64,000 nucleotides of DNA from Muribaculaceae bacterium (GTDB lineage: Bacteria; Bacteroidota; Bacteroidia; Bacteroidales; Muribaculaceae): NCBI GenBank assembly GCA_022509165.1, contig JAFLTT010000003.1, positions 92,919-156,918 on the forward strand, read 5' to 3'. Position 1 is the stretch's first letter. Each line of letters starts with the position of its first letter. Below, in pieces: positions 1-51,721 of this stretch. A model generated the notes under the pieces. It had not been told where the DNA came from. It searched no databases and saw only the letters and a list, made by a program, of their open reading frames with translations. Both the position numbers and the translations under genes were made by a program.

Positions 1-55
1 ACGTGCAATCCCTGTAGAGGCAGTTGCGATTGAAACTCCTGAATCAACTTCAGTC

Positions 56-1682: not shown

Positions 1683-2102
1683 ATGAAAGGAACTGAACAA
1701 TTCAAACAAACCATAAAGGCATACCTTGATAAAAGAGCGATTGAAGATGCCCTCTTTGCCAAAAAATATATAGAATCTCCCCGTACGATTGATGATGTTG
1801 TCACTTATATACTGAATCAGGTAAAAGCCAGTGGATGTTGTGGTTTCAGTGATGAAGAAATTTACGGCATGGCTGTGCATGGCATAGACGAACCAGATTT
1901 AGATATCGGCAAACCTATAAACTGTAATGTGGTGGTCAATCATCATGTGGAATTGACAGATGAAGAAAAGACAGAACAAAAGGCAATTGCACTCAAACGA
2001 TTCCAAGATGAAGAATTCAGGAAGCTTGAGCAACGTAACAAGCCGAAGGTAAAACCGCAAATTGAACAACAACCGCAATTATCATTATTTGATGAATTAT
2101 GA
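1683..2102 (+). CDS. PcfK-like protein
   Basis: The N-terminus 'MKGTEQFKQTIKAYLDKRAIEDALFAKKY' matches the PcfK-like family common in Bacteroidales CTns. An ATGA stop/start overlap links it to the next gene. Confidence 0.7.
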   Translation: MKGTEQFKQTIKAYLDKRAIEDALFAKKYIESPRTIDDVVTYILNQVKASGCCGFSDEEIYGMAVHGIDEPDLDIGKPINCNVVVNHHVELTDEEKTEQKAIALKRFQDEEFRKLEQRNKPKVKPQIEQQPQLSLFDEL

Positions 2103-3391
2103 AACCAAGAAACAGATACGAAAAACGGATAATCTCTTTGAGCAAAACCTTATCTCCTCTCTCCAAAGCTCAAAGGGAGAAAGCCATTATTAATACTTTA
2201 CCGCATATAGCAAAACGAACAAGCAGAGGGATATTCTTTTGTCTTGAGTGCGGTCATGAATGGAAGAACAATAACAAGGAAATTCCTGATAAAGTGAAGT
2301 GTCCTCATTGTGGAATGGAACTTACTATGGATAGGAGTCGTAAGCGTTCATTCTATTATAAGGATTATTTCAATATTATAACAGTTAAAGCGGGCATACA
2401 AGTAGTAAGAACCTTTTATATTGAATCAAGATTGAGGAAAGGCAGACAGGCACAATACTTTATTTCGGAAGTCTTTCAGAAATGGATAGATCCCAAAGGT
2501 AAGACTGCTCTTATAAGTAAAAGACGGTGCATGTCTTATTATATAGACCAATGGATATTCAGTGATAAATTGGAAATCCGAAGGGAACATATAGCACATT
2601 CTCTAATTCCTGAATATGTTTATCCAAGAATAAAAGTTATCCCTGAAATAAAGAGAAACGGATTCAAAGGAGAGTTTCACAATATCAATCCAAGTCTTCT
2701 TTTTAAAGATGTTTTGACTGATAACAGATGTGAGACACTTCTTAAAACTGGATATGGGAATTTACTGAAATATATCCTTCAGAATAACAAAAGAGGTTTT
2801 GACAGATATTGGAACTCCATAAAAATATGCATTAGAAATGGCTACAAGATTGAAGACCCTTCAATGTGGTGGGATATGGTGATAGCACTTGATTATCTTG
2901 GAAAAGACCTTCATAATCCGAAATATGTTTGTCCAGCAGACCTTAAAGTTGAACATGACAGATGGATCCTCAAGAAAGAGGAAAGGCAGGAACAGGAAAG
3001 ATTGAAAAGAATAAGAGAAAGATATCTGGCAGACTTGGAACAGCAGAAGATCGATGAAAAGGCTTACAGGAAAACCAAGAAAAGATTCTTTGACATTGTA
3101 ATCAGTGACGGAGAAATATCTATCCATGTTCTTAAGAAAGTAAAGGATTTCTATGAAGTAGGTGCCAAGTTGAATCATTGTGTTGGAACCAACCATTATT
3201 ACAATAAACCTAAATCCCTAATACTTTCGGCTGAAATTGATAAAAAGCCTGTGGAGACAATCGAGGTTTCTCTGGATAATCTTGAAATCATGCAATGCCG
3301 TGGAAAACATAATCAAAACACGACTTATCATGATAGGATTGTAAATCTTATGAAAGCCAATATGTCCCAGATTGCTAAAAGGATTTCCTGA
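2099..3391 (+). CDS. PcfJ-like protein
   Basis: 430 aa with an N-terminal CxxC...CxxC zinc ribbon (CLECGHEW...CPHCG). It is translationally coupled to the PcfK-like gene, which is the canonical pcfK-pcfJ pairing. Confidence 0.7.
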   Translation: MKPRNRYEKRIISLSKTLSPLSKAQREKAIINTLPHIAKRTSRGIFFCLECGHEWKNNNKEIPDKVKCPHCGMELTMDRSRKRSFYYKDYFNIITVKAGIQVVRTFYIESRLRKGRQAQYFISEVFQKWIDPKGKTALISKRRCMSYYIDQWIFSDKLEIRREHIAHSLIPEYVYPRIKVIPEIKRNGFKGEFHNINPSLLFKDVLTDNRCETLLKTGYGNLLKYILQNNKRGFDRYWNSIKICIRNGYKIEDPSMWWDMVIALDYLGKDLHNPKYVCPADLKVEHDRWILKKEERQEQERLKRIRERYLADLEQQKIDEKAYRKTKKRFFDIVISDGEISIHVLKKVKDFYEVGAKLNHCVGTNHYYNKPKSLILSAEIDKKPVETIEVSLDNLEIMQCRGKHNQNTTYHDRIVNLMKANMSQIAKRIS

Positions 3392-3419
3392 AATTATAAT
3401 TGTAATGAAAAAATCTTGA

Positions 3420-3472
3420 CGTACATTTTTAAAATAATACTATTAATAAAAATAACCTATTAAAAATGTACG
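3420..3472. repeat. Junction inverted repeat A (CGTACATTTTT / AAAAATGTACG, 31-nt AT-rich centre)
   Basis: 11-bp perfect arms at 3420-3430 and 3462-3472. It starts 28 nt after the pcfJ stop. Confidence 0.85.
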
Positions 3473-3518
3473 CCAAGTAATTGTTTGATAGAAATGATAT
3501 AAATTAAACGCTTTTGAT

Positions 3519-3526
3519 TATATTTG
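3519..3526 (+). promoter_or_regulatory. Bacteroides-type -7 box (TATATTTG)
   Basis: It matches TAnnTTTG, but no well-spaced -33 TTTG was found. Confidence 0.35.
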
Positions 3527-3578
3527 CAACAGATTTCCTAATGGAAGTCATTACATACAAGAGCGTTATTGAACTCTT

Positions 3579-3749
3579 CCTTACAATCAAATTCTCGCAA
3601 AATTTGAATTCCGAATGGGAAGGGAGGCAACAACGCTCACGCTTAGGTTATATTCGTCTATGATAAGACTCTTATTTCCTATAAGGCGTGAGCACTGTTG
3701 CTTATCCATTCGGTAGGCAATGCGAGAAGCCTGATTGTAGGATAAGCAA
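3579..3749 (+). other. Large nested hairpin: a structured leader, ncRNA or ssDNA element
   Basis: Nested complementary pairs: 3579-3589/3732-3741, 3592-3599/3721-3728, 3611-3618/3706-3713, 3627-3632/3696-3701 and 3635-3642/3686-3693. An alternative pairing is 3698-3707/3740-3749. Confidence 0.55.
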
Positions 3750-3821
3750 AATACAGTCCTCACGTTTCTTGTTTTGTATAATCATAAATGTTTCGACGGA
3801 GGATGAGAAACACAGATTATT

Positions 3822-4214
3822 ATGAAAAAATTTAAAATTCTCTTTCTCTTTTTGAGTCTCAGTATGGGTTTCTTGGGTCTAAAGGCTCAATACAACGTTT
3901 TTACTCCTTATGAGGATCCACGTTCTGCACAGTCAGCACCGATACAACAAACTTATGGATACATAAAGTCTTCATCAGGTTGGGTAAGAGTTAATATCCA
4001 AGTCCGAGTATCTGAATACTCTGTAACAGTAGTTGCCTATAAACAAAAAAATAATTCAGGTTATGACCAGTACTATAACACTTATGGAGGAAATAACTGG
4101 ATTAAATGTAATGCTTCAGCACAAGAAGTGACCTCTTTTGAAGATGGACGAGTGGCTGCCAATAATTTTGATTATAAAGCCTATGTGACAGGCTTAGGAA
4201 CTATTTATTTTTAA
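3822..4214 (+). CDS. Small secreted protein (signal peptide), unknown function
   Basis: The hydrophobic N-terminus ends '...LKAQYN'. It is first in a tightly packed three-gene block. Confidence 0.65.
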   Translation: MKKFKILFLFLSLSMGFLGLKAQYNVFTPYEDPRSAQSAPIQQTYGYIKSSSGWVRVNIQVRVSEYSVTVVAYKQKNNSGYDQYYNTYGGNNWIKCNASAQEVTSFEDGRVAANNFDYKAYVTGLGTIYF

Positions 4215-4217
4215 ATC

Positions 4218-4610
4218 ATGAAAAAGATAATAATCTTTTTATTGCCACTGTTATTTAGTTTACAAATTAAAGCTGATGATACTGAGCAGACTAAAGAATT
4301 AGGCCAGATTATAATCCATTTATTGGTGCAAGAGACTGGAGGTTATTCCTTGGAATATAATATTAATGAAGCAAGATTCTATGCAGATATTAAAGTTCCT
4401 TCAATCTATGATAATGAAAAAATTATTCTTAAACTAAATCCATTGTTTAAGAAAGCTGATTTTACAACATTATTGCCATGGGGTATTCAAAATGATGGAT
4501 TTCTCAGAACGATGCAAGCAATTGAGGGCATTCCGATACTTTTTAATTATGATGAGAAGAATCATATTCTTTCATTTGTAATTTTACGTGAAAATACTAT
4601 CAATAAATAA
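4218..4610 (+). CDS. Small secreted protein (signal peptide), unknown function
   Basis: Signal-like N-terminus MKKIIIFLLPLLFSLQIKA. There is a 3-nt gap to the previous gene. Confidence 0.6.
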   Translation: MKKIIIFLLPLLFSLQIKADDTEQTKELGQIIIHLLVQETGGYSLEYNINEARFYADIKVPSIYDNEKIILKLNPLFKKADFTTLLPWGIQNDGFLRTMQAIEGIPILFNYDEKNHILSFVILRENTINK

Positions 4611-4613
4611 AAT

Positions 4614-4937
4614 ATGAAAAGACTAAAAATAATTTTGATTATAATATCGATAATCTCAATACCAGTTATAGTACCTGCTGTTACAATACCAGTACAAGCT
4701 CAATATAATTCTGTAAATACTTGGGAATATATAGGCGATGTAATAGCCACAGATTTAAGTGGAGTATTTACTCGTTCTGGGCAGCTTTATGTTAAAGTCA
4801 TAGGAGGTAGGTTTATTTATAAATTTATTTATAATGATGAAGAATTCTCAGTAACTAAATGTACGGAATATAAAGGTTATAATGCAAAAATAACAAGAGG
4901 TAAAAGTTTTTGGTTGTTGAACGTACCAGAATGGTAG
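4614..4937 (+). CDS. Small secreted or membrane-anchored protein, distant paralog of 3822-4214
   Basis: The hydrophobic N-terminus ends '...VQAQYN', the same AQYN junction as the first gene. Confidence 0.55.
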   Translation: MKRLKIILIIISIISIPVIVPAVTIPVQAQYNSVNTWEYIGDVIATDLSGVFTRSGQLYVKVIGGRFIYKFIYNDEEFSVTKCTEYKGYNAKITRGKSFWLLNVPEW

Positions 4938-5026: not shown

Positions 5027-5146
5027 CGTACATTTTCTTATAATTATATTTAAATATAGACTTGTTGGAAAATGTACGTTTGAAAATAACCTATCCTTTA
5101 CAAGCTTCGATAATTCATTGACGGTATAAATTATAAAGTGTAAATT
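5027..5146. repeat. Junction inverted repeat B plus conserved ~68-bp downstream module
   Basis: Arms lie at 5027-5036 and 5069-5078. The 5069-5146 stretch is nearly identical to 7226-7302. Confidence 0.85.
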
Positions 5147-5179
5147 TTTTCTCTTTTAATTTGATAACATTATTTAAAT

Positions 5180-5322: not shown

Positions 5323-6273
5323 ATGAATAAATCTTTTTTGAATAATAAAATCACCATGAAAGAAGATTTAGAATCAAGAATAGAAAAACTCAAGCAAAGA
5401 AGATACCGCTATCAAAATAGTGAGGGGAAATGGGGATATACAGATGTGTTTGGTAAAGTAGTAGAAACAGCTCATTTGGATTCTTTTCCAGATAATTCTT
5501 ACGATATTAAAGGTGCCAGAGAATTGGATACAAAACCTCCTTTAACTTATAGGGAATTAATTAACCAATATACTGAATATCCTTTGGGAAATAAAAAAGA
5601 AATTGAAGACTGGTTTGAATTAACAGATTGTGTTGAAAGATATTTTCCTAATGAGGAATCTGTGTCGCCTGAAAAAGTGGTTTCATTTGATAGTAAATAT
5701 GATGTTGTAAGAATAGACTATGGGAAGGTTGATATTGTAGATTCTGGATTCATAGGTTATGGTATCAAGGAAAAGAACAATTTAATAGCAGATTGTGAAT
5801 TTACTAACATTTACCCTTTTTCAGAAGGTTTAGCCCGAGTTGCTAAAACAGATCTTTTCGATAGACCATATTCTCCATTGTTCCGTAATTTAGAAAAACA
5901 AGATATTGAAAGGAATTTAGACACAAATAATAAGTTAATTTATGATAAAATCCTGAAAGAAAATGGAGAATTATATTGGGGATTTATCAACGAGAAGGGA
6001 GAGAAACAAATCCCTTTAAAATATTTTAATGCTTCAGATTTTCATGAGGAACTTGCAGCCGTTAATCGAAGCTGGGATAATGAAGAATGGGGTTATATAG
6101 ATAAACAGGATAATATTGTTATCCCTTTTAAATTTGATTGGGCTGGAGATTTTCAAGATGGTTTTGCAAGGGTTCTTTATGCAGGTCTCTATTATGTTAT
6201 TGACAAAGAAGGATTCTGTTACGAATCCTTTGATGAAATCGAAATGGGACAAGGAAGTAAATTCTATTTATAA
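5323..6273 (+). CDS. WG-repeat (KWG-type) protein
   Basis: Repeated 'KWGYTDVFGKVV', 'YWGFINEKGEKQIPLKY' and 'EWGYIDKQDNIVIPFKFDWAGDFQDGFARV' motifs. Confidence 0.75.
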   Translation: MNKSFLNNKITMKEDLESRIEKLKQRRYRYQNSEGKWGYTDVFGKVVETAHLDSFPDNSYDIKGARELDTKPPLTYRELINQYTEYPLGNKKEIEDWFELTDCVERYFPNEESVSPEKVVSFDSKYDVVRIDYGKVDIVDSGFIGYGIKEKNNLIADCEFTNIYPFSEGLARVAKTDLFDRPYSPLFRNLEKQDIERNLDTNNKLIYDKILKENGELYWGFINEKGEKQIPLKYFNASDFHEELAAVNRSWDNEEWGYIDKQDNIVIPFKFDWAGDFQDGFARVLYAGLYYVIDKEGFCYESFDEIEMGQGSKFYL

Positions 6274-6584: not shown

Positions 6585-7133
6585 ATGATATTAATAAAGA
6601 ATAAACGTTGTTCTCAGGAGAAGCTTCTAAATGAATATCCTGATGCTATTATAATTGACGTGACGAGTAAGGGAGAAGGTGAATGGCAGAAACTTTCTCC
6701 CTTCTATCCTCATGGTGGAATTCCTGTTCCGTTCAGTGATGAAGCAACTTCAATGAGTGTGGAAGGCATTTGGCAAGGTCTGAAAGTTTTTGAATCTACT
6801 GACATAGATAGAAACTCTTTTCGTAACGGAACAATGAAAGGAATTAAGCGTACCGTGAGAACTAATGGAAAATGTTTAGGACATAGAAAAGGAATAAACG
6901 GTAAAGAACTGTTAGGATATATTGAAGCCCGAAAAGAGATATATGTTCCGTCTTATAATTGGATATTGGAGAATAAATGTCAGGAACAAATCAAGAAAAT
7001 TAGAATAATGTCACGGTCAAAACCAATAATTCTTTTGGATTATGACACTAATGATGATGTAGAGAATCCGACCAAGCCATTATCCCATGCTTCTCTGATA
7101 AAGAAGTTTGTAGATAACCTTAAAAATGAATAA
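6585..7133 (+). CDS. Hypothetical protein with tentative NADAR-like motif spacing
   Basis: 'LSPFYPHGGIPVPF...SVEGIWQGLKVF' loosely parallels the NADAR/YbiA pattern 'LSNFYP...F.S.EH.FQ..KF'. This is by-eye similarity only. Confidence 0.3.
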   Translation: MILIKNKRCSQEKLLNEYPDAIIIDVTSKGEGEWQKLSPFYPHGGIPVPFSDEATSMSVEGIWQGLKVFESTDIDRNSFRNGTMKGIKRTVRTNGKCLGHRKGINGKELLGYIEARKEIYVPSYNWILENKCQEQIKKIRIMSRSKPIILLDYDTNDDVENPTKPLSHASLIKKFVDNLKNE

Positions 7134-7182: not shown

Positions 7183-7302
7183 CGTACATTTTACAAAGAT
7201 ATTATAAATAATAAATAATTGGAATAAAATGTACGTTTGAAAATAACCTATCCTTTACAAACTTCGACAATTCATTGACGGTATAAATTATAAGTGTAAA
7301 TT
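7183..7302. repeat. Junction inverted repeat C plus conserved downstream module
   Basis: Arms lie at 7183-7192 and 7226-7235. The 7226-7302 stretch matches 5069-5146 with 2 substitutions and a 1-nt indel. Confidence 0.85.
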
Positions 7303-7309
7303 AGTATTC

Positions 7310-8204: not shown

Positions 8205-8232
8205 GCGTAAATTTTTCTAAAAATTTTTACGC
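8205..8232. repeat. Compact variant of the junction hairpin (GCGTAAATTTTT-CT-AAAAATTTTTACGC)
   Basis: GCGTAAA/TTTACGC arms lie 19 nt after the stop at 8185. The arm sequence is related to GCGTACATTTT. Confidence 0.6.
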
Positions 8233-8300: not shown

Positions 8301-8726
8301 ATGTCAGATTTTATTAACAACTTCAAAGCAGTTCATCACTTCATCAAGGGCATCTTCGCCAACTCCAAAGGAGAATATACCCTCACGTTCGTTCAGGATC
8401 CAGATGACAAATGGTACATTGATATGCCATGGTCGGGCAATCGAGCCAATCTTGAAATGGTGGCAGGAGCTGATGACCTCCTTACTTATCTCGATGAGGA
8501 GGGAAATCACAAGGTGACTATACATGTGGTTCCTTCTGAGACTCCTCTTGAAGTGGAAGATCATACAGAGCTCCGTCAGTTGGATAAATCAACTTTCGGT
8601 GGAAGTCATTATGACGCTACAGATTTTGAGGGATTCCGAATGAGTAAGATTTGGATATGTCCCGTTACCCTCTGTGTGTTGGGTTGTTATCCGAAATATC
8701 TTTACATTAAGAAAGTAGCCGCTTAA
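8301..8726 (+). CDS. Hypothetical 141-aa protein
   Basis: ORF with natural-looking composition. No motif recognised with certainty. Confidence 0.55.
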   Translation: MSDFINNFKAVHHFIKGIFANSKGEYTLTFVQDPDDKWYIDMPWSGNRANLEMVAGADDLLTYLDEEGNHKVTIHVVPSETPLEVEDHTELRQLDKSTFGGSHYDATDFEGFRMSKIWICPVTLCVLGCYPKYLYIKKVAA

Positions 8727-9796: not shown

Positions 9797-9851
9797 GCGT
9801 ACATTTTATGAAAAATATTATATTTGGTAATATTTAACGTAAAATGTACGC
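9797..9851. repeat. Junction inverted repeat D (GCGTACATTTT / AAAATGTACGC)
   Basis: 11-bp arms at 9797-9807 and 9841-9851, 10 nt after the stop at 9786. AAAATAACCTAT follows at 9856-9867. Confidence 0.85.
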
Positions 9852-10885: not shown

Positions 10886-10940
10886 GCGTACATTTTTAGA
10901 TGTGATTTATAATAATTATAGATTAAATAAAAATGTACGC
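10886..10940. repeat. Junction inverted repeat E (GCGTACATTTTT / AAAAATGTACGC)
   Basis: 12-bp arms at 10886-10897 and 10929-10940, with a 31-nt AT-rich centre. Confidence 0.85.
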
Positions 10941-12239: not shown

Positions 12240-14012
12240 ATGGGAACAGAAGAACTGTCGAAAAGAACCACTGTAAACATTCAAGAGAAGGCAAATCTTA
12301 TTTGGGCTATAGCCGATAAGTTGGTAGGCACATACAAGCCCCATGAGTATGGAAATGTAATCCTTCCCATGTGCGTTATAAAGCGTTTTAGCGATACTTT
12401 GGCACCAACCAAGCAAAAGGTTATTGACACCAATGAAATGCTTGAGAAACGAGGATTAGCGGTTAAAGATGGGTTCTTACGTAGTGCCTCCGGTTATGAT
12501 TTCTATAACACTTCGCCTTTCACTTTTGAAGGTCTGCTCTCCGATCCTGAGAATATAGCCGACAATTTACGCAGTTATCTAAATCATTTCTCCAACAATG
12601 TGATTGATGTCATCGAAAAATTCGATTTCGACAAGGAGATAACCAAACTTGACAACAACGGCATCCTATACAACGTAATAGCCGAGTTCAACACAAAGAA
12701 GGCTTACATGGGTGCTGATGAGATTTCAGCGGTCGACATGGGCTATATATTCGAGGAATTAGTAAGGAAATTCTCTGAAAGTTATGATGAACAAGCGGGA
12801 GCACATTTCACAGCAAGGGATATTATTTATCTGATGGCTGAATTGCTTGTGGCTCCCAGACGTAAGGAACTTCAAGAGGAAGGTATAACAGCGAGTGTCT
12901 ATGACATGGCGATGGGTACTTCACAGATGTTGGATTGTTTGAGCGAAAAACTCCATGAGATTGATGAGGATGCACAGTTGACGGAGTTCGGTCAGGAACT
13001 TAATGAGCAGACCTTCGCCATTGCCAAAGCAAATATGCTTATCAAGGGAGGAAATGCCGAGAATATGAAGCATGGAAACACACTTTCCGATGATAAATTC
13101 AGTGGTTATAAATTCGATTACATTATATCTAATCCCCCATTCGGCATTGAATGGAAAAATGAGAAATCAGCAGTTGAAGCCGAGCATAAATTAGGTGAAG
13201 CAGGTCGTTTTGCCCCTGGACTTCCTGCGATCGGAGATAGTCAGCAACTCTTTGTTCTCAATGGTGTAGCCAAGTTGAAGGATAACGGTAGAATGGCTAT
13301 TATTCAGAATGGTTCTCCTTTATTCAAGGGAGACGCTGGAAGTGGAGAAAGTAATATAAGAGGTTATCTTTTGGAAAATGATTGGATTGAAGCCATTGTT
13401 CAGATTCCGAATGATATGTTCTATAACACTGGCATAGCAACCTATATATGGGTAATCACAAAGGAAAAATCAGCGGAAAGAGTTGGTAAGGTTCAACTGA
13501 TAGATGCTTCCAAATGTGGAGTTAAGAGAAGAAAATCTATCGGTAGCAAGAGAAACGAGTTCACGGATGAGTGTATATCCCTTATCTCCAAAGCTTACGA
13601 TGAGTTCAAGGATGCACATTATAAAGATGAAGAAATCGACATAGAGGTGGAATCCAAGATAAAGGATGTTGAGGATTTCAAATTTAGCAAAGTAACTGTA
13701 GATAGACCTATTACAGATGAAAATGGAAATCCCATTTTGAAGAAAGGGAAACCACAAGCCGACAGTGGGAAGAGAGATACGGAAACAATTCCATGGAAAG
13801 AAAAGATAGAAACCTACATGGAGAAAAATGTCTATCCCTACGCTTCCGACGCATGGATAGATGAGAAGAAAACCAAGATAGGTTATGAGATACCATTCAC
13901 AAGAGAGTTTTACAAATATGCTGCTCCGAGAAATAGCGAAGAAATATTTGCATCCCTTCAATCGCTTGATGAGAAAGAACAAGAATTAATGGCTAAAATA
14001 ATCGGGCGATGA
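12240..14012 (+). CDS. hsdM: Type I restriction-modification system, methyltransferase subunit M
   Basis: HsdM-type N-terminus, the 'NPPFG' catalytic motif, and an ATGA overlap with hsdS. Confidence 0.93.
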   Translation: MGTEELSKRTTVNIQEKANLIWAIADKLVGTYKPHEYGNVILPMCVIKRFSDTLAPTKQKVIDTNEMLEKRGLAVKDGFLRSASGYDFYNTSPFTFEGLLSDPENIADNLRSYLNHFSNNVIDVIEKFDFDKEITKLDNNGILYNVIAEFNTKKAYMGADEISAVDMGYIFEELVRKFSESYDEQAGAHFTARDIIYLMAELLVAPRRKELQEEGITASVYDMAMGTSQMLDCLSEKLHEIDEDAQLTEFGQELNEQTFAIAKANMLIKGGNAENMKHGNTLSDDKFSGYKFDYIISNPPFGIEWKNEKSAVEAEHKLGEAGRFAPGLPAIGDSQQLFVLNGVAKLKDNGRMAIIQNGSPLFKGDAGSGESNIRGYLLENDWIEAIVQIPNDMFYNTGIATYIWVITKEKSAERVGKVQLIDASKCGVKRRKSIGSKRNEFTDECISLISKAYDEFKDAHYKDEEIDIEVESKIKDVEDFKFSKVTVDRPITDENGNPILKKGKPQADSGKRDTETIPWKEKIETYMEKNVYPYASDAWIDEKKTKIGYEIPFTREFYKYAAPRNSEEIFASLQSLDEKEQELMAKIIGR

Positions 14013-15370
14013 TGGAGGAGAGAGTAAGGGAGATGAAAGACAGCGGTATTCCTTGGATTGGTGAGATTCCGAAGGATTGGGAAATAAAGCCTTTAAAATA
14101 TGTACTGAATAGACGAAACGAAAAAAATAATCCTATAAAATCTAAAGAAAGATTATCCTTATCTATAGATATAGGAATAACAAAATATGAAGATAAAACA
14201 ACTAATCTTGATAGATTCAAAGATGATTTTGAACAATATCAATTAGCATATCCTAATGACATTGTTTTAAACAGCATGAATATGATTGTGGGTGCTGTTG
14301 GTAAATCTAATTATTTTGGATGCGTCAGCCCTGTATATTATGTAATGACTCCTTCTAAGGAATCATATCCTGACTATTATGGTTATCTCCTAAATGTTCC
14401 CTCGATAAGAAAGATTTATCATAAACTTGGAAAAGGTATTTATGCAATTGAAAGAGGAGAAGGTCGTGTAAATACTTGCAGATTAAAAGTGTCATTCAAT
14501 GATTTTGGTAGAATTAATATTCCCTTTCCCCCAATACAAGAGCAAAAAACGATTGCTGAATTTTTGGATAGGAAATGTAGTGAAATAGATGAATTGGTGG
14601 CTCTTCAAGACAAGATGATTGAGGAATTGAAGGCTTATAAGCAGTCTATTATAACCGAAACTGTCACCAAAGGTCTTAATCCGAATTTACCCCTAAAAAA
14701 CAGTGGTATCGAGTGGATAGGGGAAATCCCACAGCATTGGGATGTTAAACCATTTAAAGCAGTTTATTCTCTTGGCAAAGGATTAACCATTACAAAAGCA
14801 GATTTAGTAGAAAATGGTATTTCCGTGATAAGTTACGGTCAAATACATTCAAAATCAAACAGCGGTACTTCTATTAAGGATGAATTAATTAGATATGTAC
14901 CTTCTATTTTTATAGAAAACAACCAAAATTGTCTTGTTAATCATGGAGATGTGATTTTTGCTGATACATCCGAAGATTTAGAAGGGTGTGGCAACTGCAT
15001 ATTCATTGATAGAGATATGCTTTTATTCGCTGGTTATCATACCATAATTGCATTTAATAAATCCAATTATAAAAACAAGTATTTTTCCTATCTTTTCAAA
15101 ACAGATTCATGGAGAACCCAATTACGAACACTTGTAAATGGGGTTAAATTATATAGCATACCACAGAAAACCCTTTCTTCTACTTATATTATCGTACCCC
15201 CTCTTTCCGAACAACAAGAAATAGCAGATTATCTTGACAATAAATGCTCTGAAATTGACAGCCTTATTGAGTTGAAGCAACAAAAGATAGAGGAATTGAA
15301 GGATTATAAGAAATCCATCATCTATGAATATGTAACTGGCAAAAAACAAGTGGAAATCAATGAAATATAA
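14009..15370 (+). CDS. hsdS: Type I R-M specificity subunit S
   Basis: Two target-recognition halves. Each is preceded by 'IPxxWE.KPLK'-type motifs and followed by conserved coiled regions ('EQ..IA.FLD.KCSEID.L'). Confidence 0.92.
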   Translation: MMEERVREMKDSGIPWIGEIPKDWEIKPLKYVLNRRNEKNNPIKSKERLSLSIDIGITKYEDKTTNLDRFKDDFEQYQLAYPNDIVLNSMNMIVGAVGKSNYFGCVSPVYYVMTPSKESYPDYYGYLLNVPSIRKIYHKLGKGIYAIERGEGRVNTCRLKVSFNDFGRINIPFPPIQEQKTIAEFLDRKCSEIDELVALQDKMIEELKAYKQSIITETVTKGLNPNLPLKNSGIEWIGEIPQHWDVKPFKAVYSLGKGLTITKADLVENGISVISYGQIHSKSNSGTSIKDELIRYVPSIFIENNQNCLVNHGDVIFADTSEDLEGCGNCIFIDRDMLLFAGYHTIIAFNKSNYKNKYFSYLFKTDSWRTQLRTLVNGVKLYSIPQKTLSSTYIIVPPLSEQQEIADYLDNKCSEIDSLIELKQQKIEELKDYKKSIIYEYVTGKKQVEINEI

Positions 15371-15542
15371 TTTTGCGGCCGAAAATTTTGACCACAAATT
15401 CCTAAATACTTACTTCAAAGCCGAATATATAGACTTTGAAAAATGGAAAGGTGATCAAAATTTTTGACCACCTACTAAGTATTCATTAATTTTCAAGATC
15501 AATATTTTTGACTTTGAAAACAAAATCAAAAACAATACATTA

Positions 15543-16199
15543 ATGGCAGATATAATCACAACCAGTGAAGTTAAGGATGTTATAATTCCTTTGAGAGGAG
15601 AAGAGGTAATTCTCGATTTTGAGGTTGCCAAACTATATGGTGTGGAGACCAAGCGAATAAATGAAGCAGTCAAAAATAATCCCGAAAAGTTTCCCACAGG
15701 CTTCGTTTTGGAATTAACAAAAGAAGAGTGGAAGGTTCTAAGGTCGAAAATTTCGACCTTAGAGGATAAAAATGGTAAAGGTAATCATCCGAAATATCTT
15801 CCAAAAGCCTTCACTGAAAGAGGATTATATATGCTTGCAACTATCTTGAAAAGCCCGATTGCAACACAAACCACATTGGCAATTGTAAATACCTTTGCAC
15901 AAGTTCGTGAAGTGAGAAGACAGATTCTTGCCATGCATGCCATGGAAGGTAAGATGGATAAGAAATCTCAGATGAATTTCCTTACAGGTTTCGGAAATCT
16001 ATTGACAGATATTCTGATGCCTGAAATGGAAACCTCCGACACTGAGACTTCCATGGAATTGAACTTCGTAATAGGCAAGTTAAAGCACACTGTGAAAAGA
16101 AGTAAAAAGAAAGATGAGGTAGGAAAATTAATCAGTATCGCCAAAAAGATGCTTGAAAAAGGATATTCAGAAGAGGATATTGCAGATATTTTGAAATGA
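15543..16199 (+). CDS. ORF6N/KilA-N-like DNA-binding domain protein embedded in the R-M operon
   Basis: 'VILDFEVAKLYGVETKRINEAVKNNPEKFP..F.LELTKEE' and 'PKAFTERGLYMLATILKS' are ORF6N hallmarks. An ATGA overlap links it to hsdR. Confidence 0.75.
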   Translation: MADIITTSEVKDVIIPLRGEEVILDFEVAKLYGVETKRINEAVKNNPEKFPTGFVLELTKEEWKVLRSKISTLEDKNGKGNHPKYLPKAFTERGLYMLATILKSPIATQTTLAIVNTFAQVREVRRQILAMHAMEGKMDKKSQMNFLTGFGNLLTDILMPEMETSDTETSMELNFVIGKLKHTVKRSKKKDEVGKLISIAKKMLEKGYSEEDIADILK

Positions 16200-19100
16200 T
16201 GGAAACCAAGGAAAAGAACTTTGAAGCAGACATAGAATCATATCTTCTTAATCAGGGAGGATATATAAAGGGTAATCAAGCCACTTACGATAAGGCAAAG
16301 GCAATTGATATGCCTGTGCTAATATCCTTCATAGAGAAGACCCAACCGAAAGTTTGGGAGCGGTATAAAAATGTCTATGGGGATAAGGCAGAGAAGCAAT
16401 TATACAATATATTCCAACAGAATGTAGATACCTACGGACTTATTTACGTATTGAGGAATGGTATCAAAGACAGAGGAATACCTATCAGATTCGCTTATTT
16501 CGCTCCCGCTTCAAATCTCAATTCTGAATTGGTAGAAAAGTACAATAGCAATATACTGACTGTTACAAGGCAATTCTCCTATTCCGAGCAAAATCACAAT
16601 ACAATTGACATGGTTATCTCATTGAATGGGATTCCCATTGTAGCAATTGAATTGAAGAACCAACTCACAAACCAATCCGTAGCCAATGCCAAAAGGCAAT
16701 TCATGGAAGACAGGGATGAAAGAGAGTTCTGTTTCCGTTTCAATAATCGTTTTCTCGTATATTTTGCCGTTGACCTATACGAAGTGGTAATGACCACTCA
16801 TTTGCAAGGCAAGAAGACTTATTTTCTTCCCTTCAATCAAGGTTCTAATGGGGCTGGTAATGTGGGTGACGGAGGAAATCCACCAAATTCCAATGGCTAT
16901 GTGACTTCTTACCTATGGGAGAAAGTATTGTCAAAAGACACATTACTCTCTATCCTTCAAAGATATATTAGCAAAGAGGTGAAAGAAAAAGTATCACTTC
17001 AAAACGGTAAACAAGTAAAGAAAAAAACAACAAGACTGATATTCCCAAGATACCACCAACTTGATGTTGTAGAAAAACTTGTAAACGAAACAAAAAACAG
17101 TAAGGAAGGCAAGAATTACCTAATCCAACATTCAGCAGGTAGTGGAAAGTCAAATTCAATCGCATGGTTGGCTTACAGATTGGCTTCATTGCATGACAAT
17201 GAGGATAAAGAGGTGTTTCAAACAGTGTTTGTTATCACCGACCGAAGGATTCTAAACCGACAACTGCAAGAGACGATATTGGGATTCGATCATTACGAAG
17301 GACAGATAGCCACAATAACGGATTCCGACAATTCTTCCGTATTAAGGGATGCTATAAACGATAAGAAAAGAATAATAATCACCACCCTTCACAGATTCCC
17401 TTTGATTTATAAGGAACTTGATAACCATAAGGGGAAGAAATTCGCAATAATAGTGGATGAAGCTCATTCAAGCCAAAGCGGAAAATCAGCGGAGAAACTG
17501 AAAGCGGCATTGGCAGATACCGAAAGTGCGGTGGCTGAAATGGCAGAGGTTTATGGAACAACCGAGGAGGAGATTCTTGATGAAATGGATGTGATGGTGG
17601 AGACACTTCTAACTCAAGGACAGCACAAGAACCAATATTTCTATGCCTTCACAGCCACTCCAAAGCCAAAGACCATACAGACTTTCGGAACTTACAAGGG
17701 TACGGATGAAGAAGGGAATCCTCAATATGAAGCCTTCCATCACTACAGCATGAGACAAGCCATAGATGAAGGTTTCATACTTGATGTGTTAGAGTTCTTT
17801 ACTCCCGTTGAGACTTCATATAAGATAGTGAAGGCGATAAAGGATAATCCAGAGTATGAAGAACCGCCAGCCACAAGAGCGATAAAGGCTTACCATGACA
17901 GCCATGAGTATGTGATTGAGCATACCGTGGAACTTATAGTAGAAAAGTTTAGGGATATAACTTTAAACAAAATGGATGGCAAAGCCAAAGCCATGGTTGT
18001 ATCACCGTCAAGGCTTCATGCAGTGAGATATTACCTTGCCATGAAGGAATATTGCAAAAAGAAAGGATATACGGATGTTAAGCCATTGGTAGCATTTTCC
18101 GATACTGTAACTCTTGATGGGAAAGAATATACCGAAGTGCAACTCAATTCCACGGACACTTATAAGATTTCAGAATCAGCACTTCCAATGTATTTCGAGA
18201 GTGATTTATATAATATTCTTATTGTAGCGGAGAAGTATCAGACTGGTTTCGATGAACCCCTATTACATACAATGTTCGTTCTAAAAGGATTGAGAGGGGT
18301 AAAAGCGGTGCAGACATTATCACGGCTTAATAGAAGTGCTAAAGGAAAAACCGACACTTTTGTATTGGATTTCGTAAATACAGCGGAAGATATTCAAGCA
18401 TCCTTCAAGCCATTCTATGAAGATACATTGCTTTCGGAACCAGTGGATGTCAATATAGTTTACAAGTATCTGAATAACTTGAAGGCTTATCATCTATGGG
18501 GAACGGAGACCGAAGAAAAGGTTTATGAAGTATTTAAGTCACAGCAGGATGATAAGGCAATGGGTAAACTTACAAGCCTTTTGAAGCCCGTATTGGATGA
18601 TTTCAATGCTCTTGATGAAGAAGACCGATTTAAGGTAAGATATTATGTAAGGGCTTTCATTCGCTTCTATGCTTTTATGGCACAGATAGAAAGGACATTT
18701 GATAAAGAACTTTTCAAGACCTATGTATTTTGTGAATATCTATTCAAGGTTTTACCAAAGAATCCTCATGAAAAAGTGGATTTGGAAAACAAATTAAGAT
18801 TGGAACACCATGTGTTCAAGGTGCAAGACACACAGAAGATAAACCTTTCCCCCACCAAAAAAGATAAGACAGTTAAGGGAGAAAACGGTGGTGACGGAAA
18901 AAAGGTTGAAGAAAAGAGGGATTTGCTTGACAATATCATTGACAAAATCAATCTGATGTATCAAGGGCAGTTCACGGAAGCCGACCGAGTAATTGTTGAG
19001 ACCATATTCGACAAAGCAAAGCAAGAGGAAAAGAAACTCAAGAAACAGGCGAAAAATTCCGATGTTAATATGTTCACCAACAACATATTCCCTAAGATAT

Positions 19101-19234
19101 TCGAACAGATAGCCCAAAAATGTTACATCGAACAGATGGATGCTTTCTCAAAACTCTTTGAAGACCAATCCTTCTATGAAAAAGTGGCTCAAGAAATGGG
19201 TAAAGCCATGTATTACGGCTTGAAAAACGAATAA
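16196..19234 (+). CDS. hsdR: Type I restriction endonuclease subunit R
   Basis: 1012 aa with Walker A 'SAGSGKS', DEAH-box 'VDEAHSSQ' and helicase motif 'QTLSRLNR'. Confidence 0.93.
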   Translation: MMETKEKNFEADIESYLLNQGGYIKGNQATYDKAKAIDMPVLISFIEKTQPKVWERYKNVYGDKAEKQLYNIFQQNVDTYGLIYVLRNGIKDRGIPIRFAYFAPASNLNSELVEKYNSNILTVTRQFSYSEQNHNTIDMVISLNGIPIVAIELKNQLTNQSVANAKRQFMEDRDEREFCFRFNNRFLVYFAVDLYEVVMTTHLQGKKTYFLPFNQGSNGAGNVGDGGNPPNSNGYVTSYLWEKVLSKDTLLSILQRYISKEVKEKVSLQNGKQVKKKTTRLIFPRYHQLDVVEKLVNETKNSKEGKNYLIQHSAGSGKSNSIAWLAYRLASLHDNEDKEVFQTVFVITDRRILNRQLQETILGFDHYEGQIATITDSDNSSVLRDAINDKKRIIITTLHRFPLIYKELDNHKGKKFAIIVDEAHSSQSGKSAEKLKAALADTESAVAEMAEVYGTTEEEILDEMDVMVETLLTQGQHKNQYFYAFTATPKPKTIQTFGTYKGTDEEGNPQYEAFHHYSMRQAIDEGFILDVLEFFTPVETSYKIVKAIKDNPEYEEPPATRAIKAYHDSHEYVIEHTVELIVEKFRDITLNKMDGKAKAMVVSPSRLHAVRYYLAMKEYCKKKGYTDVKPLVAFSDTVTLDGKEYTEVQLNSTDTYKISESALPMYFESDLYNILIVAEKYQTGFDEPLLHTMFVLKGLRGVKAVQTLSRLNRSAKGKTDTFVLDFVNTAEDIQASFKPFYEDTLLSEPVDVNIVYKYLNNLKAYHLWGTETEEKVYEVFKSQQDDKAMGKLTSLLKPVLDDFNALDEEDRFKVRYYVRAFIRFYAFMAQIERTFDKELFKTYVFCEYLFKVLPKNPHEKVDLENKLRLEHHVFKVQDTQKINLSPTKKDKTVKGENGGDGKKVEEKRDLLDNIIDKINLMYQGQFTEADRVIVETIFDKAKQEEKKLKKQAKNSDVNMFTNNIFPKIFEQIAQKCYIEQMDAFSKLFEDQSFYEKVAQEMGKAMYYGLKNE

Positions 19235-51650: not shown

Positions 51651-51721
51651 GGTGCCATGTCCGAGTGGTTAGGTACCGGTCTGCAAAACCGTTGACACCA
51701 GTTCGAATCTGGTTGGCACCT
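51651..51721 (+). tRNA. tRNA-Cys (GCA)
   Basis: Acceptor GGTGCCA/TGGCACC, anticodon loop CTGCAAA, T-arm ACCAG-TTCGAAT-CTGGT. Confidence 0.9.

Follow-up and report, generated by a model that had tools for sequence, protein, structure and literature searches.

Two groups stand out among the closest described counterparts of the element reported here. In terminator/antiterminator leaders (trp-type, RAT/LicT-SacY, PyrR and riboswitch platforms), four strands in the 5' untranslated region (5' UTR) pair either as 1:2 and 3:4 or as 2:3 (with 1:4), both states are conserved, and a U-tract lies behind the 3:4 hairpin, which is GC-based. The rAID-1 clusters (Ross et al. 2019) are defined by a small XerD-family tyrosine recombinase ahead of two or more short, low-GC genes that share its direction and have conserved motifs between them, and a sequence motif has been reported between the recombinase and the first open reading frame (ORF; bioRxiv 10.1101/471110; PMC12247911). 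The available text of these papers treats the intergenic sequence as a DNA motif and describes no RNA structure, promoter or terminator. According to the accessible part of the preprint, the intergenic repeats are "reminiscent of integrons", and the clusters occur in more than half of the Bacteroidales with sequenced genomes and in almost all adult gut metagenomes that were examined, are highly expressed in gut metatranscriptomes and are competitor-induced (bioRxiv 10.1101/471110). The regulation and assembly of the clusters are described as open in the available text of the second paper (PMC12247911).

A window of 64,000 nucleotides from a Muribaculaceae bacterium (GenBank assembly GCA_022509165.1, contig JAFLTT010000003.1, positions 92,919 to 156,918 of the forward strand) contains an element that shares features with both groups. 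It occupies the gap at 3530-3821, which lies behind a PcfJ gene and ahead of a run of co-oriented small genes (hereafter the array) whose first start codon is at 3822. The gap, with the promoter box at its edge, probably represents the promoter and the bistable 5' leader of the array messenger RNA (mRNA), a cis-acting transcription-attenuation switch. With the terminator/antiterminator leaders it shares the 5' UTR position, the conservation of both states, the four-strand pairing scheme, and the GC-based 3:4 hairpin with its U-tract. With rAID-1 clusters the family shares the gene order, since a phage-integrase-family protein of ~195 aa (PF00589, a tyrosine recombinase) precedes the leader and co-oriented short genes follow it at 26 of the 58 loci with enough flank. 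The rAID-1 motif is likened to the element by position, not by sequence, and in the window the leader adjoins PcfJ upstream and not a recombinase.

Two folds of the leader RNA and their conservation

Four strands, named W (3561-3581), X (3617-3642), Y (3684-3707) and Z (3740-3767), pair in two mutually exclusive ways, here called Fold I and Fold II. The features of the element are as follows (MFE, minimum free energy).

3519-3526, + strand: Bacteroidetes-type -7 promoter box TATATTTG, which fits TAnnTTTG; predicted start at ~3531-3536
3532-3549, + strand: P0, the 5'-terminal hairpin (GATTTCC, loop TAAT, GGAAGTC), in the MFE fold
3561-3767, + strand: Fold I, one long irregular hairpin (X with Y, W with Z), the extended nested hairpin of the MFE fold
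3561-3566/3762-3767 and 3567-3570/3741-3744: Fold I closing helices P1 and P1b
3581-3588/3733-3740: Fold I helix P2
3592-3599/3721-3728, plus 3604-3606/3718-3720: Fold I helix P3
3611-3618/3706-3713, 3627-3633/3695-3701 and 3635-3642/3686-3693: Fold I helices P4, P5 and P6
3643-3685: apical variable domain of Fold I
3561-3638, + strand: 5' arm of Fold II, W 3561-3581 with X 3617-3638
3587-3593/3601-3607: apical hairpin of the 5' arm, with loop CUCGCAA at 3594-3600
3684-3767, + strand: 3' arm of Fold II, the long terminator hairpin (Y with Z)
3684-3692/3759-3767, 3694-3698/3753-3757 and 3699-3707/3740-3748: terminator helices T1, T2 and T3
3716-3718/3729-3731: terminator-loop mini-hairpin (GGC/GCC), which displays AAUGCGAGAA
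3720-3734: mini-ORF of four codons, AUG CGA GAA GCC UGA (MREA-stop), which starts in the terminator apical loop
3765-3776, + strand: U-rich tract TTTCTTGTTTTG, directly past the terminator stem
3789-3812, + strand: final small hairpin, stem 3789-3794/3807-3812 with G-rich loop GACGGAGGAUGA, in the MFE fold; ends 10 nt before the ATG

Folded as RNA on the + strand, 3530-3821 reached -101 kcal/mol against -61.9 ± 4.7 kcal/mol for 200 dinucleotide shuffles (z = -8.3, none as good), so that the gap is non-random, as an earlier annotation made from the letters alone (the sequence-only reading) had held. The - strand and the DNA parameter sets likewise scored well (z = -7.1 and -6.7 for single-stranded DNA) because any long inverted repeat gives such scores. 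The five nested helices of the sequence-only reading (3579-3589 with 3732-3741; TTCTCGCA at 3592-3599 with TGCGAGAA at 3721-3728; CCGAATGG at 3611-3618 with CCATTCGG at 3706-3713; GCAACA at 3627-3632 with TGTTGC at 3696-3701; and GCTCACGC at 3635-3642 with GCGTGAGC at 3686-3693) were recovered in the computed MFE structure, in which P1 and P1b extend the nested hairpin to ~205 nt. The hairpin is therefore real, but its proposed size of ~160 nt is too small for the element, a leader of ~290 nt that spans from the promoter box through P0 to the end of the small hairpin at 3812. The competing pairing that had been pointed out between TTGCTTATCC (3698-3707) and GGATAAGCAA (3740-3749) is present and conserved, and it forms part of a long terminator hairpin with a U-tract. 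The small hairpin before the ATG was also found.

The same element was identified upstream of one of the only five relatives of the first small protein behind the leader in a protein database of 5.8 billion sequences (L004; 57% identity; no PcfJ). Long blocks are identical between L004 and the window, and two helices differ in sequence while remaining complementary: CCGAATGG/CCATTCGG is replaced by GGGGCA/TGTCCC, and ACAATCA/TGATTGT by ACTATCA/GATAGT. The P0 stem in L004 is GACTTCC/GGAAGTT, with pairing retained through changes from U-G to C-G and from G-C to G-U; relatives carry longer hairpins of different sequence at this position, which supports P0 without a formal pair count. The family was searched with an exact 19-mer, CAAATTCTCGCAAAATTTG (3588-3606 of the window), which matched more than 120 metagenome contigs among the matches listed, mostly from human gut. 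The element was present in 113 of the 123 matches inspected, including the window contig and L004, and these comprised 87 distinct full-length copies. Two subtypes were distinguished: subtype A, which is window-like (...GCAACAACGCTCACGC...GGCGTGAG...TCCTCACGCTTTT), and subtype B (...GCAATAGCACCCACAC...GGTGTGGG...TTCCCACACCTTTTTT). The first ORF begins 230-250 nt past the 19-mer in most members.

Both folds contained compensatory changes across the homologs, the check that had been suggested for the nested hairpin. For Fold I, RNAalifold on a structure-blind MAFFT alignment of 58 representatives yielded 48 pairs, 19 of which showed compensatory changes. Canonical pairs filled 96.4% of the cells, compared with 33-53% in slid controls, and 279 cells carried double changes versus 89 ± 9 in shuffles. 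Covariation was seen in the helices that are exclusive to Fold I, at 6 of 8 pairs in P2 and at 6 of 6 in P4, and both showed three or four pair types. Fold I is the MFE structure in 54 of the 58 representatives, and on average it lies 10.3 kcal/mol below the two arms.

The 5' arm of Fold II folded alone reached -24.2 kcal/mol, with 98.3% canonical cells in the MAFFT alignment, and helix A2 (alignment columns 91-96/138-144), which is unpaired in Fold I, covaried at 5 of its 6 pairs. The 3' arm alone reached -36.7 kcal/mol in the window and adopted the same fold in all 58 relatives (-31 to -44 kcal/mol). Among 75 distinct sequences of this arm, aligned by fitting to a 94-position covariance model of the terminator arm, 96% of the cells were canonical, 15 of 25 pairs showed compensatory changes, and double-change cells numbered 146 versus 31 ± 6; the RNAalifold analysis of the unfitted MAFFT alignment also recovered its stems. 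T3, which is the alternative pairing of the sequence-only reading, covaried at 8 of 9 pairs. In the 10 nt past the stem, at least 7 U were found in 46 and at least 5 U in 56 of 58 relatives. With its stable GC-based hairpin and U-tract, the end of Fold II is thus an intrinsic terminator of the canonical kind, although a long one. The leader thus contains two mutually exclusive conserved structures, one of which is a terminator, and P2/P4, A2 and the terminator all covary. A generic promoter/terminator scan was uninformative because it assumes sigma-70 promoters and loops of 3-8 nt; it missed the terminator owing to the loop limit.

The strand on which the element acts is indicated by its mismatches. 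Cells with G·U outnumbered those with A·C by ~10:1, namely 252 versus 25 in Fold I, 107 versus 12 in the terminator and 133 versus 7 in the 5' arm. Selection on the other strand or on a duplex-DNA cruciform is disfavoured because no such asymmetry would be expected of it. The + strand RNA is the functional molecule, as the G·U excess indicates in combination with the promoter and U-tract and with the RNA evidence presented below.

CUCGCAA and AAUGCGAGAA, the apical loops of the two arms, are complementary to each other and form P3 in Fold I. The invariance of these loops should not be over-read, as the 19-mer covers one and pairing fixes the other. The first 12 nt of the mini-ORF are almost invariant in the family, whereas its stop varies, giving mostly 4-8 codons and far longer frames in a few members. 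A leader peptide was rejected as the main constraint on this segment, given the absence of synonymous-type variation and the variable length; constraint at the RNA level is more likely.

The final small hairpin was found in nearly all relatives, with many different stems and a GGGRA-type loop. This loop is complementary to a stretch of Z, GUCCUC in subtype A and GUUCCC in subtype B, and the cognate pairing was predicted at -10.6 kcal/mol, compared with -5.3 ± 0.3 kcal/mol for shuffled loops and -6.3 and -7.6 kcal/mol across subtypes. In the modelled structures, only Fold I leaves the Z stretch free, as the terminator stem of Fold II takes up part of it; a loop-Z contact would therefore be specific to the read-through RNA. 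Near-identical leaders with different first genes diverge either at the U-tract, a point at which indels confuse the ungapped comparison, or right past the final hairpin. The final hairpin marks the 3' edge of the conserved unit and is possibly a gene-exchange point. It was not found elsewhere in the arrays, and its identification as a repeated cassette-junction motif was rejected.

Transcription and a proposed mechanism

TAnnTTTG is the consensus of the Bacteroides -7 box. The window carries a single match between 3480 and 3830 on either strand, TATATTTG, and 107 of 113 members have a -7 box in the corresponding position, 70-100 nt ahead of the 19-mer. No conserved promoter box was detected inside the structured part on either strand across the 113 members. 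In six RNA-seq runs of three cultured organisms, the Logan contigs that cover a common subtype-B copy (L023) have their ends at 8217-8231, 14-28 nt past the -7 box; such contigs are strandless and tend to lose the extreme 5' end, and the start is thus fixed within ~10-15 nt, in the position expected from the promoter. These contigs traverse the leader into the downstream genes, up to 3.9 kb, and because they are continuous the leader belongs to the mRNA. One run examined as raw reads contained 10 partial reads. Gut metatranscriptome assemblies contained short contigs on conserved blocks in or close to the leader at a depth of ~65-190, versus ~17 in the flanks. The gut metatranscriptome contigs fragment at these blocks, where much deeper contigs overlap them, and so carry no information on transcript ends; such fragmentation would be expected of sequence that is common to many loci and strains in each community.

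The proposed role as a cis-regulatory leader of the riboswitch- or attenuator-like kind fits these data best, given the conserved competing folds, the terminator with its U-tract, the promoter box and the RNA-seq contigs that run into the gene. In growing transcript prefixes, W:X is the MFE pairing until Y is complete, and X:Y then takes over in 52-57 of 58 sequences; the RNA must therefore refold during the transit of polymerase from Y to the U-tract. We infer that transcription can terminate at the U-tract and that switching between the folds is regulated, in the direction set out here. During synthesis, W would pair first with X to form the 5' arm. If Y then pairs with the later Z, the long GC-based hairpin and the U's behind it would cause termination ~55 nt before the start codon. 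Alternatively, Y would displace W from X, and W would pair with Z to give the rod of Fold I, which would remove the strong terminator stem and allow RNA polymerase to read into the array. The two-hairpin state would form first because its helices are local, and since Fold I is the more stable state, the outcome would depend on the rate at which the 5' arm opens within the ~70-90 nt from Y to the U-tract. The output would then be set by whatever stabilises or opens the 5' arm, be it a protein, an RNA, a ligand or a pause, and the contact between the loops (CUCGCAA/AAUGCGAGAA) could nucleate the strand exchange. Modelled in this way, the folding logic is that of a kinetic attenuator.

Several observations weigh against an attenuation switch. 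No effector was identified. The RNA contigs pass straight through the U-tract, which indicates at least substantial read-through in culture, and the U-run is shorter in subtype A, including the window (4-5 U), than in subtype B. P1 also abuts the U-tract, so that Fold I itself might terminate weakly, with on and off reversed. W resembles Y and X resembles Z, and the apparent covariation of P1, P6 and T1 could partly reflect concerted change of a duplicated hairpin, an objection that the fold-specific helices escape. The pair counts of the 3' arm are model-fitted. All relatives share one exact 19-mer and are thus a biased sample, and the invariance seen in P3 and in the two complementary loops results in part from that search.

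A wider interpretation of the attenuation switch is that the family constitutes a new class of RNA sensor, operating by an unusual strand exchange between two homologous hairpins and one rod that the complementary apical loops would nucleate, and that the family thereby couples arrays of orphan-immunity and conjugative cargo to a cellular signal such as attack, envelope damage or transfer, with its 3' edge doubling as an insertion point. We regard this extension as speculative and rather unlikely as a whole.

Comparison with known regulators and alternative readings

The element differs from described terminator/antiterminator leaders in several respects. It was found to contain neither a leader peptide nor a RAT-like protein site nor a known aptamer; its two arms are homologous and form a rod by exchanging strands over ~60 bp; their apical loops are mutually complementary; and the cargo genes are very diverse, mostly without a known domain. 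A scan against Rfam, as had been advised, matched no family to the leader. At the gathering score, the sole match of Rfam 15 in the window was a tRNA at 51651-51721; permissive scans of 3350-3900 and of one subtype-B member gave only chance-level matches to miRNA, snoRNA and sRNA models, and the loci of four relatives had no match. Conserved 15-mers were absent from the paper texts searched, in which no published description of the element as an RNA structure was found. No match occurred in the first 200 of the 408 supplementary files of the Fremin & Bhatt structured-RNA catalogue, in which an anonymous entry is possible. The FopS sRNAs, which are short sRNAs linked to polysaccharide utilization loci, were rejected as unrelated.

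The attenuation reading would be refined, and the kind of effector named, if the leader were a true riboswitch, in which a small molecule or ion bound by Fold I or by the two-arm state decides between termination and read-through. The element does have a terminator/antiterminator expression platform in a 5' UTR with a conserved promoter, and it is large and conserved, with additional complementarity of a tertiary type. However, it matched no riboswitch class of Rfam 15, Fold I is essentially a rod with no multi-helix junction, and most of the conserved bases that are "unpaired" in one fold pair in the other, which leaves little that resembles a binding pocket. The downstream genes are diverse and mostly without Pfam families, with no apparent metabolic theme, and we know of no riboswitch regulon with such a diverse set. 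A riboswitch in the strict sense is thus improbable.

A comparably low probability is assigned to a processivity leader, in which the RNA, with or without a host factor, would modify RNA polymerase at the array head so that it passes the hairpins and terminators that separate the horizontally acquired, AT-rich genes. Known examples are put of phage HK022 and EAR of the Bacillus eps operons, which are also structured RNAs near the start of long operons; a loading site for a NusG paralogue would be another. The leader occurs once per array, at its head, in long co-oriented arrays that are punctuated by hairpins (five junction hairpins over 7.5 kb in the window), and RNA contigs of 3.5-3.9 kb start at it. 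On the other hand, the sequence and structure matched neither EAR nor any other Rfam model, and the element, unlike put and EAR, has its own terminator and a second fold, both of which are explained without a processivity function.

The strong terminator hairpin with its U-tract and the 5'-terminal hairpin would also suit a stand-alone, stable RNA of ~235 nt that ends at the predicted terminator and acts in trans or as a protein sponge, with read-through being secondary. The greater metatranscriptome depth over the leader blocks points in the same direction, but such an excess would arise in any case, since the blocks are common to many paralogous copies. The ATG lies at a fixed distance, the RNA contigs are continuous with the gene, and no target is known, all of which make a primarily stand-alone function still more improbable; from the modelled termination, a terminated RNA may well exist alongside the mRNA.

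Two DNA-level systems resemble the element in part. Integron Pc/attI regions share the single-copy position at the head of a co-oriented array of acquired genes, the neighbouring tyrosine recombinase, an array promoter and a first gene that differs between otherwise identical copies; they differ in that the recombinase is co-oriented with the array here and divergent in integrons, and in that the block conserved here is transcribed into a structured RNA that has a terminator. The Frpo/ssi regions of conjugative plasmids share a long imperfect hairpin, and the window copy lies by DUF3871, RadC, PcfK and PcfJ; however, the promoter of the element is outside the stem, the element is also found in recombinase-headed arrays, and the strand asymmetry and U-tract point to RNA. 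The Frpo-like single-strand promoter that had been offered as a further role was not borne out, as the only TAnnTTTG lies outside the hairpin without a complementary partner and the stems contain no conserved box on either strand. A DNA-level role as such, whether as a single-strand promoter on entering conjugative DNA or as an attI/attC-like recombinase site, is very unlikely: the single-stranded DNA folds beyond chance, the leader takes an attI-like place after the recombinase at many loci and lies among conjugation-linked genes in the window, near-identical leaders with different first genes break at its 3' end, and the rAID repeats have been likened to integrons in the available text of the preprint (bioRxiv 10.1101/471110), but the promoter box lies outside the hairpin, the G·U to A·C ratio speaks against both a cruciform and the other strand, a conserved U-tract and terminator logic are features of RNA, the element is transcribed, the element is not repeated at cassette boundaries, and many copies stand in recombinase-headed rAID-type arrays and not only by conjugation genes. 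A recombination site at the 3' edge of the leader could coexist with its RNA function.

Gene arrays headed by the leader

In the window, the genes and repeats around the leader are arranged as follows.

56-988: DUF3871 gene, upstream of the leader
1098-1547: RadC gene, upstream of the leader
1683-2102: PcfK gene, upstream of the leader
2099-3391: PcfJ gene, the immediate upstream neighbour of the leader
3421-3471 (within 3415-3477), strand unassigned: junction hairpin A, GTACATTTT-N33-AAAATGTAC
3822-4214, 4218-4610 and 4614-4937, + strand (ORF list): three small proteins with N-terminal hydrophobic signal-like segments, the first genes behind the leader
3421-3471, 5028-5077, 7184-7234, 9799-9849 and 10888-10938: five junction hairpins that separate groups of co-oriented small genes

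DUF3871, RadC, PcfK and PcfJ are genes that we take to be typical accessories of Bacteroidota conjugative elements. Across the family, RadC, DUF3871 and resolvases were upstream neighbours at four loci each, in addition to the tyrosine recombinase. A contig search based on PcfJ retrieved one locus, in a Muribaculaceae metagenome-assembled genome (68% identity), which lacks the element behind it; PcfJ and the element are thus not bound to each other. Measured against the rAID-1 definition, the relatives match in the recombinase and the co-oriented short genes; the window has co-oriented short genes and repeated junction hairpins, but no recombinase adjoins the leader.

The leader lies at the head of arrays and not at cassette boundaries. 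The window has one leader, one human-gut contig (L056) has two, and no further extra copy was found within any related locus. In L056, the 19-mer occurs at 1259-1277 and 12759-12777 (minus strand), and the two copies, 11.5 kb apart in the same orientation, have different first genes, one of them standing behind a resolvase-family gene. First-ORF products were very diverse in the family, including lipoprotein-like, secreted, membrane and cytoplasmic proteins, most without a Pfam family. The leader does lie upstream of a trio of secreted proteins in the window, as noted previously, but the association is incidental, given that the downstream gene is highly variable family-wide.

The co-oriented small genes downstream of the leader mostly lack Pfam families, and none was detected in the three small proteins at 3822-4937. 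Families of only the DUF or repeat type were found in three array genes, DUF6939 (6585-7133), DUF6717 (8301-8726) and a WG-repeat protein (5323-6273). The other array genes scanned with Pfam had no match, and no immunity family was identified in the window array. Poorly known small-protein cargo, such as orphan immunity genes, fits this array. A complete-looking type I restriction-modification system (12240-19234), co-oriented with the leader-headed array, comprises HsdM (12240-14012), HsdS (14009-15370) and HsdR (16196-19234), with an ORF6N-domain gene (15543-16199) between HsdS and HsdR.

The GTACATTTT-N-AAAATGTAC junction hairpin, of 50-51 nt, occurs in five copies in the window against a chance expectation of 0. 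The copies at 5028 and 7184 continue into a near-identical stretch of ~70 nt (~5078-5148 and ~7235-7303) that contains AAAATAACCTATC. From their sequence and placement these hairpins look like cassette-boundary repeats. They were essentially absent from the human-gut relatives, in which 1 of 121 oriented loci had a single, shorter match to a looser pattern. The junction hairpins belong to the lineage of the window, and they were rejected as a feature of the leader family.

Near-identical DNA to the window was found in gut and rodent metagenome runs, and an exact look-up of the window proteins returned only the source contig, an ENA gut-metagenome contig. Two short Logan contigs that encode homologues of the first small protein start within the leader (positions 1-57 of L003 and 1-85 of L005). 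At L018 (4823), a metatranscriptome contig runs on with AATCAAATCTCGCAAATTTGAAAAGG, which departs from the 19-mer by two single-base deletions, and the family is therefore wider than the exact-word copies. A distant DNA search of a plasmid collection gave no match; among viral contigs, a 21-mer gave none and a 16-mer gave only chance matches in coding sequence.

The leader accounts for the gap at 3530-3821 in the window and marks the transcription start of the array. A large family of structured RNAs from the human gut would be an addition to Rfam. A two-state leader with a conserved promoter and terminator gives the question of rAID regulation a concrete, mutable handle, and the same leader heads cargo arrays that adjoin conjugation genes. 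This two-state RNA, which carries its own terminator, is widespread and unannotated, and it heads acquired gene arrays in gut Bacteroidales.

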